Shown: in pieces, positions 24,935 through 26,221 of the stretch
Layout: each line of letters opens with the position of its first letter
Position numbering within the stretch: position 1 is the first letter of the stretch
Virus record (IMG/VR): IMGVR_UViG_2654588181_000005
Coordinates: 1 to 26,467 of that record
Source: a virus
Lineage: Duplodnaviria; Heunggongvirae; Uroviricota; Caudoviricetes
DNA: 26,467 bases
Strand: one strand, 5' to 3'
Position numbers and translations under genes: made by a program
Notes under the pieces: model-generated
What the model saw: the letters and a program-made list of their open reading frames with translations, nothing else
Database searches by the model: none
Told to the model about the DNA's origin: nothing

Positions 24935-26221
24935 ATGAAAAAACTATTTGTAGCCTCTGTTATATTTACAGTTTCAGCAAATTCTTATGCATATAATTCT
25001 TATAATGCCGGTGATAATAGCCAGGCAACTGATAGTAATGCGACAGCTATTGGTGCATATGCAAATGCTTCAGGTTCTTCTTCTACAACAATTGGCGCTG
25101 TTTCAAAAACCGAAGGAGCCTATAATACTGCAATTGGTTCATATTCTTCATCTCAAGGTAACTCATCGTCAGCTATTGGCGCAAATGCAAATGTTGTTGG
25201 AAATAACTCGGTAGCCATTGGTTCATTTAGTAAAGTAAACGGTGATTCAGCTATAGCAAATGGTGCGGGTAGTGAGGCAGTCGCTAATTCTACAAGTGTA
25301 GGTGCTGCGTCTAAAGCAACCGGGGAAAACAGTGTTGCATTTGGTTCCTCCGCCCAGGCGACTGCAGGAGATACATTAGCTATTGGTGTAGGGGCTACAT
25401 CTAATGCAGAAAATGCCATCTCACTAGGCTCACAGAGTGTGGCTGAACATAATAATAGTGTTGCCATCGGCGGGGGAAGTACAACTGACAGAGAGTATAG
25501 TGTATCTTTTGGGACGGGTAATACTAATCGACAATTGACCCATGTTGCCGCAGGTACTGAGGATACTGATGGTGTTAACGTTAAGCAACTGAAAGATTAT
25601 ACTGGGAATGAGATAGCTAAAAATAATACCGTAATTAATCAAAACATCAATAATGCCAAGAATGAATCACTGGCATATACAGATCAGCAGGTTACCAAAA
25701 ATAATGCTGTGATAAATCAGAATATTAATAATGCCAAGAATGAATCACTGGCATATACAGATCAGCAGGTTACCAAAAATAATGCTGTGATAAATCAGAA
25801 TATTAATAATGCCAAAAGCGAATCAATGGCATACACTGATCAGGAAGTTACGAAAAATAACGGTGTTATTAATAAAAACATACAATCAGCAAAACAAGAA
25901 TCATTCGCATATACTGATACAAAATTTAACCAAATTAATGGGAAGATAAATTCAACATTTAAGCAGCTGAATGATAAGATAGAAGCTAATGCTAAAAAAG
26001 CTAATGCAGGTATTGCTTCCGTAGCAGCAATGACCAATATCCCGTATGTGAATAACCAGACATTTAGTGCCGGCGTTGGGGTTGGTAACTATAGAAACGG
26101 TAATGCAGTAGCTGTTGGTGTTCAATACAAACTTAATGAAAACACCAATATTCGTGCATCGTCTTCATGGAATAATACTGATGGAGCAGTAATCGGAGGG
26201 GGTATTGCTGTAGGCTGGTAA
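24935..26221 (+). CDS. Trimeric autotransporter adhesin, YadA-like (Eib-type immunoglobulin-binding protein family candidate)
   Basis: Signal peptide MKKLFVASVIFTVSANSYA; head repeats (NSVAIG, SxAIGxxA); repetitive stalk; C-terminal beta-barrel anchor ending GGGIAVGW; AT-rich gene with a very AT-rich upstream region. Confidence 0.8.
   Translation: MKKLFVASVIFTVSANSYAYNSYNAGDNSQATDSNATAIGAYANASGSSSTTIGAVSKTEGAYNTAIGSYSSSQGNSSSAIGANANVVGNNSVAIGSFSKVNGDSAIANGAGSEAVANSTSVGAASKATGENSVAFGSSAQATAGDTLAIGVGATSNAENAISLGSQSVAEHNNSVAIGGGSTTDREYSVSFGTGNTNRQLTHVAAGTEDTDGVNVKQLKDYTGNEIAKNNTVINQNINNAKNESLAYTDQQVTKNNAVINQNINNAKNESLAYTDQQVTKNNAVINQNINNAKSESMAYTDQEVTKNNGVINKNIQSAKQESFAYTDTKFNQINGKINSTFKQLNDKIEANAKKANAGIASVAAMTNIPYVNNQTFSAGVGVGNYRNGNAVAVGVQYKLNENTNIRASSSWNNTDGAVIGGGIAVGW
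25619..25930 (+). repeat. 78-bp (26-codon) tandem repeat array, about 4 copies, inside the adhesin stalk
   Basis: Period of 78 nt measured between identical segments starting 25691 and 25769; protein repeats KNN(T/A/G)VINQNINNAK(N/S)ES(L/M)AYTDQ(Q/E)VT; the last copy has diverged. Confidence 0.9.

Follow-up and report, generated by a model that had tools for sequence, protein, structure and literature searches.

A predicted short YadA-like trimeric autotransporter adhesin encoded at the right end of a Rac-type prophage of Escherichia coli

All Eib proteins share a conserved C-terminal module, which consists of a saddle minidomain and a left-handed coiled coil (PMC12511318). Critical for the binding of IgG Fc are Y388 of EibD, the Asp preceding it (D378 as printed) and the equivalent D391 of EibG (PMC13534694); in the numbering of AAF63040 the EibD Asp is D387. 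The Cla proteins, which have up to about 50% similarity to Eibs, lack IgG binding and were excluded from the Eib family at a similarity below 50% (PMC13534694). The same study (Kotaka et al., Nat Commun 2026) described, in LEE-negative STEC, lineages of trimeric autotransporter adhesins (TAAs) called 'Yal' (function-unknown adhesin-like), the clades of which are EibG-like by BLAST, have neither the saddle nor the N-terminal domain (NTD), fall outside the Eib clusters and are closer to Saa (PMC13534694). Other described systems close to the locus considered here are YadA of Yersinia, encoded on the pYV plasmid; Saa, the STEC autoagglutinating adhesin of pO113; and, with respect to the genomic setting, the lambda morons lom and bor, whose products are outer-membrane proteins. 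The gene lom is also carried by the P-EibA prophage.

Here we analyzed a TAA gene in a stretch of 26,467 nucleotides, positions 1 to 26,467 of the IMG/VR record IMGVR_UViG_2654588181_000005, which is referred to below as the window. Its product is likely a short YadA-like 'lollipop' TAA, encoded by a moron at the right end of a Rac-type prophage at ttcA, and not an Eib protein.

Domain architecture of the encoded protein

The gene and the parts of its product are located as follows (window coordinates, strand, feature, evidence).

24935..26221, + strand: TAA gene of the YadA-like family, 428 aa (ORF list, Pfam, dN/dS)
24935..24991, + strand: putative signal peptide, aa 1-19, MKKLFVASVIFTVSANSYA (sequence inspection)
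24992..25519, + strand: predicted YadA-like beta-roll head (Pfam YadA_head, phmmer, AF2, Foldseek)
25532..25657, + strand: neck or connector (RQLTHVAAGTEDTDGVNVKQLKDY) into the stalk, aa 200-241 (PF05662)
25580..26035, + strand: predicted coiled-coil stalk, a single helix of aa 216-367 without a saddle (DSSP on the AF2 model)
25619..25930, + strand: four tandem 26-aa (78-bp) stalk repeats, KNNxVINQNINNAKNESLAYTDQQVT, aa 229-332 (TRF, repeat listing)
26051..26218, + strand: predicted YadA-type membrane anchor, aa 373-428, ending in GIAVGW (PF03895, AF2, Foldseek)

The open reading frame extends over 24893..26221, and the ATG at 24935 yields a protein of 428 aa; RefSeq places the start at the same ATG in identical and near-identical alleles, and the RefSeq protein WP_077782794.1 of strain A2 is 100% identical to that of the window. 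The N-terminus, MKKLFVASVIFTVSANSYA followed by Y, looks by inspection like a Sec-type signal peptide composed of a basic n-region (MKK), a hydrophobic core of 10 residues (LFVASVIFTV) and SANSYA, with S at -3 and A at -1. In the AF2 model, which has a pLDDT of 79 and represents a single chain although the protein must form trimers, aa 1-19 have pLDDT below 50.

The head contains PF05658 (YadA_head) in five stretches (1.1e-16, 61 bits, above the gathering cut-off), and its best phmmer match in PDB is the YadA head 1p9h (E 8e-22); other PDB sequence matches of the protein are BpaC, SadA and BoaA, as well as the anchors of YadA and AtaA. The modelled beta-roll begins directly after the signal peptide and forms a beta-solenoid of aa 21-190, with strands every ~7 residues and pLDDT above 90 for aa 90-190; Foldseek matched it to the heads of YadA, BoaA and BpaC (1p9h, 3s6l, 7o23). 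The neck, detected as PF05662 (YadA_stalk; 2.1e-7, 31.6 bits, aa 200-241, above the cut-off), aligns residue by residue with the necks of YadA, BpaC and SadA. The first part of the stalk, aa 216-232, has pLDDT below 50, and only from about aa 233 onward does the model give the helix with confidence. TRF described the stalk repeats as a 78-bp unit in 3.8 copies at 25619-25918. The C-terminus matches PF03895 (YadA_anchor; 1e-7, 32.3 bits against a cut-off of 22.7, aa 373-427), is modelled as four beta-strands (377-386, 389-401, 404-413 and 418-426) and has AtaA, Hia and YadA as Foldseek matches.

By its predicted domains, the window protein is a real YadA-like TAA, which presumably trimerises and is displayed on the cell surface. 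The original prediction had placed at 24935-26221 a 428-aa protein with a signal peptide, YadA-like head repeats, a repetitive stalk and a C-terminal membrane anchor, and this architecture was confirmed.

Such a protein would enter the Sec route by its 19-aa signal peptide, as for type Vc autotransporters. Three C-terminal four-strand segments would, together with BAM, form a 12-strand outer-membrane barrel, and export of the passenger through this barrel would give a trimeric coiled coil as the stalk, some 150 residues long and topped by the neck and by a beta-roll head with about 12 turns. Resembling most closely the collagen-binding head of YadA, this head would most likely mediate adhesion and/or autoaggregation; a dense surface layer may add complement resistance; and the number of stalk repeats (3, 4 or 5) would set the projection of the head, at roughly 4 nm per repeat. 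We infer an adhesive or serum-resistance function for the window TAA, serum resistance being possible by analogy, as a general property of TAAs.

Prophage setting and the low-GC insert

The features of the surrounding element are located as follows.

1..1236, - strand: IntR-type integrase at the left end of the prophage (Pfam Arm-DNA-bind_2 and Phage_integrase)
23716..24138, + strand: truncated DUF4376 (tail-fibre-assembly-like) gene directly upstream of the insert (Pfam DUF4376, 2.4e-17)
24148..26296, + strand: moron-type insert of 2,149 bp (blastn against E. coli W)
24148..24934, + strand: AT-rich non-coding leader, 32.9% GC (composition)
26260..26297, + strand: terminator-like hairpin with a 10-bp stem (AAAAGCCUGC/GCGGGCUUUU) and then a U-run, at the right edge of the insert (RNA fold)
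26401..26446, + strand: short repeats of the GGGGCAAAA type in attR-proximal Rac DNA (TRF)

The host element is a defective Rac-type cryptic prophage of E. coli integrated at ttcA; it lacks genes for the head and the terminase, and those for the tail fibre are degraded. Since an IntR-type integrase, annotated as intR beside ttcA in NWU_3, is found at the left end, the window spans the element. The Pfam matches of the window ORFs agree with the RefSeq gene order of collinear elements, which is intR-xisR-ralR-recT-recE-racC-kilR-ydaTUV, baseplate, tail fibre, tfa, DUF4376, the YadA-like gene, uspF and ompN. In NWU_3, the TAA stop codon is followed 332 bp downstream by a 43-bp att core repeat, ~86 bp beyond the window end, and then by uspF; the TAA gene is the last gene of the prophage, about 330 bp inside attR.

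The Rac prophage of E. coli W, which is otherwise collinear, has 49 bp in place of the insert: the homology ends at 24147 and resumes at 26297, and 26297-26465 is common to the Rac end of E. coli W. The GC content is 36.4% in the insert and 38.6% in the ORF, compared to 46.4% in the rest of the prophage. The leader holds a degraded fragment of a tail-fibre-assembly gene (about 24211-24320), with an annotated tfa pseudogene in the corresponding position of KY180, NWU_3, A2 and C41, and only 24842-24934 of the leader is common to the island copy of STEC309. A promoter scan gave 10 sites, with 10.4 expected from shuffled sequences and none above chance, and no obvious Shine-Dalgarno sequence precedes the TAA ATG. 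The long AT-rich leader suggests that the gene might be silenced, for example by H-NS, in laboratory conditions. For terminators, too, the consensus scan gave no signal exceeding that of shuffled sequences; its one terminator-like call, at 24863-24879, is upstream of the TAA gene. The hairpin and U-run that border the insert on its right side are no more than suggestive of a terminator; their z-score is only -1.4 for a stretch of 89 nt, and the consensus scan did not call them. Words of the GGGGCAAAA type, also seen near attL and attR in NWU_3, are possible IntR arm-type sites.

The TAA gene is ordinary moron-type accessory cargo and not a phage structural gene, since its product has a signal peptide and a beta-barrel anchor, the insert is lacking in the Rac prophage of E. 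coli W, and copies of the gene occur in non-phage settings. The identity of the product as a phage tail component was considered and rejected in view of the signal peptide and the full anchor. Thus, the view of the gene as a moron in AT-rich DNA just inside the prophage end, put forward in the original prediction, still stands. The arrangement is similar to that of lom and bor in lambda, as both are discrete low-GC inserts at the end of the late region, between genes or sites adjacent in a related phage, with a surface protein likely benefiting the lysogen and, in the window, a candidate terminator hairpin; it differs in the protein family, the window gene encoding a type Vc autotransporter, in that no promoter stood out in our scan, and in the defective state of the host prophage.

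Alleles, distribution and related adhesins

The number of stalk repeats is polymorphic between strains, with alleles of 3, 4 or 5 units at the same locus and proteins of 402 aa (C41), 428 aa (the window and A2) and 454 aa (KY180 and NWU_3). The changes in repeat number are in frame in every allele examined, and all examined alleles are intact. The dN/dS ratios against the island and plasmid alleles are 0.06-0.08, with dS up to 1.85, demonstrating that the gene is functional, under purifying selection. C-terminal mosaicism was considered and rejected, as the confinement of DNA matches to query positions 1-1519 proved in local BLASTN to be an artefact of an extra 78-bp repeat.

The distribution was taken from DNA searches and not from the protein search. 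Among 5,426 complete E. coli genomes, only 31 contain the gene, as do four prophage contigs of IMG/VR. STEC309 harbors a copy in an IS-rich island (93.9% amino acid identity), a conjugative IncF plasmid carries a copy with 82% amino acid identity, and in strain A2 the same right-end module is part of a different, lambda-like prophage at the same site. In Escherichia, this TAA lineage is mobile, with prophage ends, IS-rich islands and IncF plasmids as its settings. The wide protein search with the repeat-rich query returned no near-identical E. coli protein among the matches listed, which we do not read as rarity; its top match was a Proteus protein with 55% identity over 59% of the query, and the best non-Escherichia relatives among the matches listed were from Proteus, Edwardsiella, Morganella and Providencia. 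The P. columbae homolog (~53% identity) is chromosomal, adjoins an RTX operon and has surroundings of comparably low GC content. The best matches and the GC content, the two grounds for this assignment, make an origin of the lineage in Morganellaceae (Proteus-like) likely. In RefSeq, C-terminal homologs from lytic phages are labelled 'tail protein'; the homolog in Proteus phage Privateer is a headless anchor protein of 194 aa located among accessory genes. Our literature search found nothing on the RefSeq accessions of the TAA, nor on a Rac prophage in combination with a trimeric autotransporter.

The window protein shows traits of the Yal group: it has no saddle and no NTD, and it matches Saa (E 3e-28) and YalA (E 9e-85) better than Eib proteins (E 1e-18 to 7e-20). 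The genome of JNEC-KY180 belongs to the study describing Yal, whose text puts YalA on the KY180 chromosome (PMC13534694). In the JNEC-KY180 sequence we found the 454-aa allele of the window TAA at the corresponding Rac/uspF junction. The plasmid pKY178 encodes a single TAA, the plasmid YalA, which has 38.6% identity to the window protein over the full length. In searches with the pKY178 gene, nearly all matches were on plasmids, and megablast of complete E. coli genomes gave no chromosomal match. Both proteins are short YadA-like lollipops without the saddle and the Eib NTD; they differ in the sequence of the stalk repeats and in location, the pKY178 gene following T4SS genes on a conjugative plasmid and not residing in a prophage. 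The window TAA belongs to a rare lineage of uncharacterised function, probably one of the 'Yal' clades; at this level of identity to YalA, it may represent the other Yal clade or an unnamed one.

YadA of Yersinia has the same domain order, a similar size, a near-identical neck motif and no saddle, and its head, the best PDB match, has 38% identity to that of the window protein in the Foldseek alignment. The window TAA is not a YadA ortholog, since it scores 112 bits against a cut-off of 750 in the NCBIfam YadA model NF033478. Its head has more turns (~12), its stalk is made of 26-residue repeats, and its gene resides in a prophage, unlike the plasmid-borne yadA. Saa is likewise a mobile E. coli TAA with a variable number of tandem stalk repeats; in pO113 these are five units of 37 aa, whose sequence is unrelated to the 26-aa repeats of the window. 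The Saa match (28% identity over 360 aa), in which the anchor and the stalk can be aligned, covers Saa residues 182-534 only, and Saa differs in a ~180-aa N-terminal region without a counterpart in the window protein, a very short beta-roll and its plasmid location.

We consider it rather unlikely that this mobile lineage of likely Proteus-like origin, with its stalk length tuned by the repeat number, is a distinct one that also has a ligand or phenotype unlike that of Eib, Cla, Saa and YadA, for example a new host receptor, a new aggregation pattern or a masking of receptors protecting lysogens against other phages.

Comparison with Eib proteins and alternative explanations

The original prediction had likened the protein to the immunoglobulin-binding Eibs, and what holds of this resemblance is the general design and the genomic position. 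Apart from EibA, which differs in the head, Eibs are TAAs with a YadA-like head, a neck, a coiled coil and an anchor. Their genes lie at the late end of lambdoid prophages, where orf-191 directly precedes eibA, eibC and eibE; its DUF4376 homolog, with 33-40% identity to orf-191A/C/E and E values down to 5e-40 (33-36% and 1.6e-16 to 7e-19 for the truncated window gene in BLASTP), precedes the window TAA gene, which therefore occupies the same slot. [quoted passage not shown] The Eib NTD, a novel fold located before the beta-roll or in its place (~100 Eib-specific residues), has no counterpart in the window protein. The Eib block ESRTTVGV...DGKLTRAEG...VALSGRTDRID...QQHSARL has none either, the MAFFT alignment having the 26-aa repeats at that position, and the IgG-Fc segment RTDRID(Y/A) is absent. 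The stalk helix, aa 216-367, is one continuous helix in the AF2 model, in which no saddle interruption is seen. MAFFT sets the Asp of the AYTD repeat motif (D302) under the EibD Asp preceding Y388, but Y388 itself stands opposite Gln, and the match of the single Asp is not robust because BLAST puts a gap opposite RTDRIDYAVGAI. The best head match is YadA and not EibD, the C-terminus is AVGW where Eibs end in VNFEF, and the leaders have no DNA similarity. The window TAA is not an Eib protein. Given the low identity and the missing NTD, saddle with left-handed coiled coil and RTDRIDY, Ig Fc binding is not predicted from the sequence, and this part of the original analogy is not supported. A functional Eib-type protein, whose stalk would bind IgG or IgA Fc non-immunologically and shield the lysogen from serum, is hence a highly improbable explanation, the more so as the Cla proteins, which are nearer to Eibs, already lack IgG binding (PMC13534694).

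The protein could also mainly serve the prophage, by masking outer-membrane receptors against superinfecting phages with a dense surface layer or by aggregating lysogens. TAA-like proteins are found repeatedly in phage genomes, the stalk and the anchor have matches among PHROG families, virulent phages such as Privateer carry headless YadA-anchor accessory proteins, and the same prophage holds other cargo protecting the lysogen, namely a BstA-like KilA-N protein and RalR. However, the gene is equally conserved on the island, the IncF plasmid and the Proteus chromosome, and this conservation outside prophages argues for a benefit to the host cell that is independent of the phage; moreover, PADLOC gave no match for the TAA, and the literature searched held no experimental precedent, so that we judge a role primarily for the prophage unlikely. 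The least probable explanation, to which we give hardly any weight, is that of a silent relic, in which the ORF looks intact but has lost its expression or its use as the prophage decays. It would be in line with the defective host element, the lack of a convincing promoter or ribosome-binding site in our scans and the rarity of the gene among the complete genomes, but not with the low dN/dS ratios at such high dS, the intact alleles and in-frame repeat changes, and the retention of the gene through transfer among at least four genomic contexts.

A short YadA-like TAA carried as a moron thus remains the favored explanation, and it corrects an over-annotation: a TAA encoded at the end of an E. 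coli prophage need not be an Eib, and Ig binding should be inferred only where the Eib-specific stalk module is present. The locus also provides a concrete case of the diversity of EibG-like adhesins (Cla, Yal) that recent work has recognised: a Rac-type and a lambda-like prophage, an IS-rich island and IncF plasmids all carry this one rare adhesin gene, whose alleles differ in stalk length between strains. The practical consequence is modest, the gene being a candidate for the functional tests that exist for EibG and Cla. Should the protein turn out to promote adhesion or protection from serum, it would provide a further example of a cryptic prophage altering the surface of mostly animal-associated E. 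coli.

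The adhesin gene at the end of a Rac-type prophage

The window is a cryptic prophage of the Rac type. Besides the integrase, its ORFs encode a KilA-N protein, Baseplate_J, a lambda-gpK-type tail-fibre assembly protein and a DUF4376 protein (Pfam). Collinear elements of E. coli NWU_3 and JNEC-KY180 (KY180) are annotated on the left as ttcA followed by intR, xisR, ralR, recT, recE, racC, kilR ... ydaT, ydaU and ydaV, and on the right as baseplate genes, tail fibre, tfa, DUF4376', tfa' and a YadA-like gene followed by uspF, ompN and nifJ. The NWU_3 element has a 43-bp direct repeat (93% identical), with the attL copy in the 5' end of ttcA and the attR copy 332 bp beyond the stop codon of the trimeric autotransporter adhesin (TAA) gene, about 86 bp past the window end; thus the TAA gene is the last gene within the prophage. 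Short GGGGCAAAA-type repeats (window 26401-26446; about 3970-3992 and 33870-33910 in the NWU_3 record) adjoin both attL and attR and may be IntR arm-type binding sites.

Features of the window and domains of the window protein
1-1236 (-): tyrosine integrase, Arm-binding (Pfam)
24148-26296: segment with a degraded tfa fragment, AT-rich leader, TAA ORF and hairpin
25619-25918: 78-bp tandem repeat within the TAA ORF
about 26260-26297: hairpin with a 10-bp stem, then a U-run (RNA fold)
five stretches of the protein: YadA_head, 1.1e-16 (Pfam)
aa 200-241: YadA_stalk, the neck motif, 2.1e-7 (Pfam)
aa 373-427: YadA_anchor, 1e-7 (Pfam)

E. coli W carries the same Rac variant without the TAA gene. The two right ends are homologous up to 24147, where DUF4376 ends, and again from 26297, so that a segment of 2,149 bp replaces 49 bp of W. 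The GC content is 38.6% in the TAA ORF, 32.9% in its 787-bp leader and 46.4% in the rest of the element. The original prediction of a prophage-borne TAA moron (an accessory cargo gene) in AT-rich DNA just inside the prophage end is confirmed. The W prophage (L011 1215-4942, compared with window 23386-24147) keeps an intact second tail-fibre gene of 1,046 aa and a full DUF4376 gene, of which the window has remnants only (23556-23772 and 23756-24147); a loss of tail-fibre DNA by deletion goes along with the arrival of the TAA cassette.

The open frame spans 24893 to 26221 (+), and the ATG at 24935, as predicted, gives 428 aa with the N-terminus MKKLFVASVIFTVSANSYA (ORF listing). RefSeq uses the same start codon for identical and near-identical alleles and names the product 'YadA-like family protein'. 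No clear Shine-Dalgarno sequence precedes this ATG, and a promoter scan of the region gave nothing above chance. For the hairpin the signal is only suggestive, with a z-score of -1.4 over the folded stretch and no call by the consensus scan.

Two other genes of the element deserve mention. The KilA-N-domain protein at 12910-13683 (-) (Pfam 4.3e-27), the C-terminal half of which matches the PADLOC BstA model (3.2e-21), is a probable BstA-type abortive-infection defence protein. Between baseplate genes, 18234-19409 (+) encodes a protein of 391 aa with type I restriction HSDR_N domains; its gene lies in a patch of 35-39% GC (18001-19500) and looks like a second cargo insertion. RefSeq names the protein 'type I restriction endonuclease', and PADLOC gave no match.

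Domain architecture of the protein

All three TAA modules found by Pfam exceed the gathering cut-offs, in line with the predicted YadA-like head and C-terminal anchor. The predicted repetitive stalk was also found: the 78-bp repeat encodes four 26-residue units, KNNxVINQNINNAKNESLAYTDQQVT, at aa 229-332. Read from the sequence, seven hydrophobic positions per unit would give about 3.7 residues per turn, comparable to the pentadecad/hendecad stalks of YadA. NCBIfam models of named TAAs gave sub-threshold matches only (YadA model, 112 bits against a cut-off of 750), so that none of the curated TAAs is orthologous to the protein.

An AlphaFold2 monomer model (25-sequence alignment, mean pLDDT 79) has beta-strands every ~7 residues from aa 21 to ~190, a spacing that fits a left-handed beta-roll of about 12 predicted 14-residue turns. 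The neck is followed by a single unbroken helix (aa 216-367), confidently modelled only from about aa 233 since pLDDT is below 50 at aa 216-232, and by four C-terminal beta-strands (aa 377-426). Foldseek against the PDB matched the heads of YadA, BoaA, BpaC and EibD and the anchors of AtaA, Hia and YadA. By sequence, the solved structure that matches best is the YadA collagen-binding head (1p9h, 8e-22); the EibD structure 2xqh matches at only 1.7e-5.

Relatives and distribution

The TAA gene is rare. Of 5,426 complete E. coli genomes 31 carry it, as do four IMG/VR prophage contigs. Its contexts include:

Rac-type cryptic element: window, NWU_3 and KY180
lambda-like prophage of strain A2, same ttcA/uspF site: protein 100% identical
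IS-rich chromosomal island of STEC309, adjoining an omptin gene: 93.9% aa identity, homology only at 24842-26239
conjugative IncF plasmids of E. coli and one E. albertii plasmid: 76-82% aa identity

The annotation of the A2 prophage includes a complete set of head and tail genes, several with frameshifts. At the Rac locus, alleles vary by whole repeats: 402 aa (C41), 428 aa (window, A2) and 454 aa (KY180, NWU_3). In both the STEC309 island and an IncF plasmid, the TAA gene has a gene for an outer-membrane protease of the omptin family within a few kb (L009 13100-14053, L010 1-913), which may reflect a common ancestral virulence-type island. Exact look-up of the 428-aa query in a 15-billion-protein collection found no match, although the A2 RefSeq protein WP_077782794.1 is identical, and the protein homologue search passed over every near-identical allele of E. 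coli; the candidate list of the word index seems to become saturated with repeat-rich queries.

Kotaka et al., who sequenced 13 LEE-negative STEC genomes and gathered 41 EibG-like TAAs, split two groups from the Eib family: Cla, chain-like adhesins without IgG binding, and Yal, two 'function unknown adhesin-like' clades nearer Saa, without saddle and N-terminal domain (PMC13534694). They located YalA on plasmid pKY178 and the KY180 chromosome (PMC13534694). KY180, a genome of that study, has the 454-aa allele of the window TAA gene at the Rac/uspF junction. The single TAA gene of pKY178 encodes a protein with 38.6% full-length identity to the window protein, and megablast found no chromosomal match to this gene in complete E. 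coli genomes. The window protein is thus very probably a member of one of the Yal clades, and a protein of its type is probably already catalogued in the 2026 study as of unknown function. Saa of pO113 is 28% identical across 360 residues.

The pKY178-type gene (L008 12026-13354) lies directly 3' of a T4SS cluster, after TrbM/KikA, on small conjugative plasmids of 34-50 kb including pEC4115 of O157:H7. Among plasmids its C-terminal half alone is conserved, which suggests head swapping; the product might conceivably play a part in mating-pair contact. Short headless proteins with a YadA-like anchor occur in virulent phages of Proteus, Cronobacter, Salmonella and Erwinia, for example the 194-aa gp130 of Proteus phage Privateer (L022 2785-3369), encoded among accessory genes; the RefSeq label 'tail protein' on such copies looks like annotation carry-over.

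Among the matches listed, the nearest relatives outside Escherichia are in Proteus, Edwardsiella, Morganella, Providencia and Xenorhabdus. In Proteus columbae the homologue (53% identity over the full length) is encoded by an ordinary gene of the chromosome, which adjoins an RTX toxin operon and lies in DNA with a similarly low GC content. The gene plausibly stems from Morganellaceae.

Eib likeness and possible function

The original prediction likened the protein to the Eib proteins, which confer serum resistance and immunoglobulin binding. Common to all Eibs are a C-terminal module (anchor, left-handed coiled coil and saddle) and a novel N-terminal domain (PMC12511318), and IgG-Fc binding rests on the Asp just before Y388 of EibD, equivalent to D391 of EibG (PMC13534694); in AAF63040 it is residue 387, within ...RTDRIDY.... 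Compared with EibA, EibC, EibD and EibE from the P-Eib records, the window protein shows 25-27% identity to EibC/D/E, and 31% to EibA over the C-terminal 121 residues only. In the multiple alignment the ~100-residue Eib N-terminal domain has no counterpart, and the block ESRTTVGV...DGKLTRAEG...VALSGRTDRID is absent, its position being filled by the 26-residue repeats. MAFFT pairs D302 of an AYTD repeat with the Eib Asp and a Gln with Y388, but BLAST has a gap opposite RTDRIDYAVGAI; given this disagreement, we regard the pairing as coincidence and give it no weight. The Eib-defining sequence features are thus missing, Ig binding is not predicted from the sequence, and an Eib-type Ig binder is disfavoured. 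Beyond general TAA design only the position is Eib-like: orf-191, which precedes eibA/C/E, is homologous to the DUF4376 gene ahead of the window TAA (33-40% identity, E down to 5e-40).

A role in serving the phage, e.g. receptor masking, is possible, as phages repeatedly encode TAA-like proteins, but outside prophages the gene is just as well conserved. Intact alleles speak against a silent relic, as do dN/dS ratios of 0.073 (to the island allele) and 0.058 (to the plasmid allele), which demonstrate strong purifying selection. The evidence best supports a YadA-like surface adhesin borne as prophage cargo; the original observation is confirmed and its interpretation partly supported, the gene being a TAA moron at the prophage end and no Eib.

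Such a protein would be exported via Sec, its trimeric barrel would assemble with BAM assistance, and the passenger would then be exported, displaying the beta-roll head on a coiled-coil stalk whose length would vary with repeat number. By analogy with the family, it may confer adhesion, autoaggregation and possibly complement resistance.
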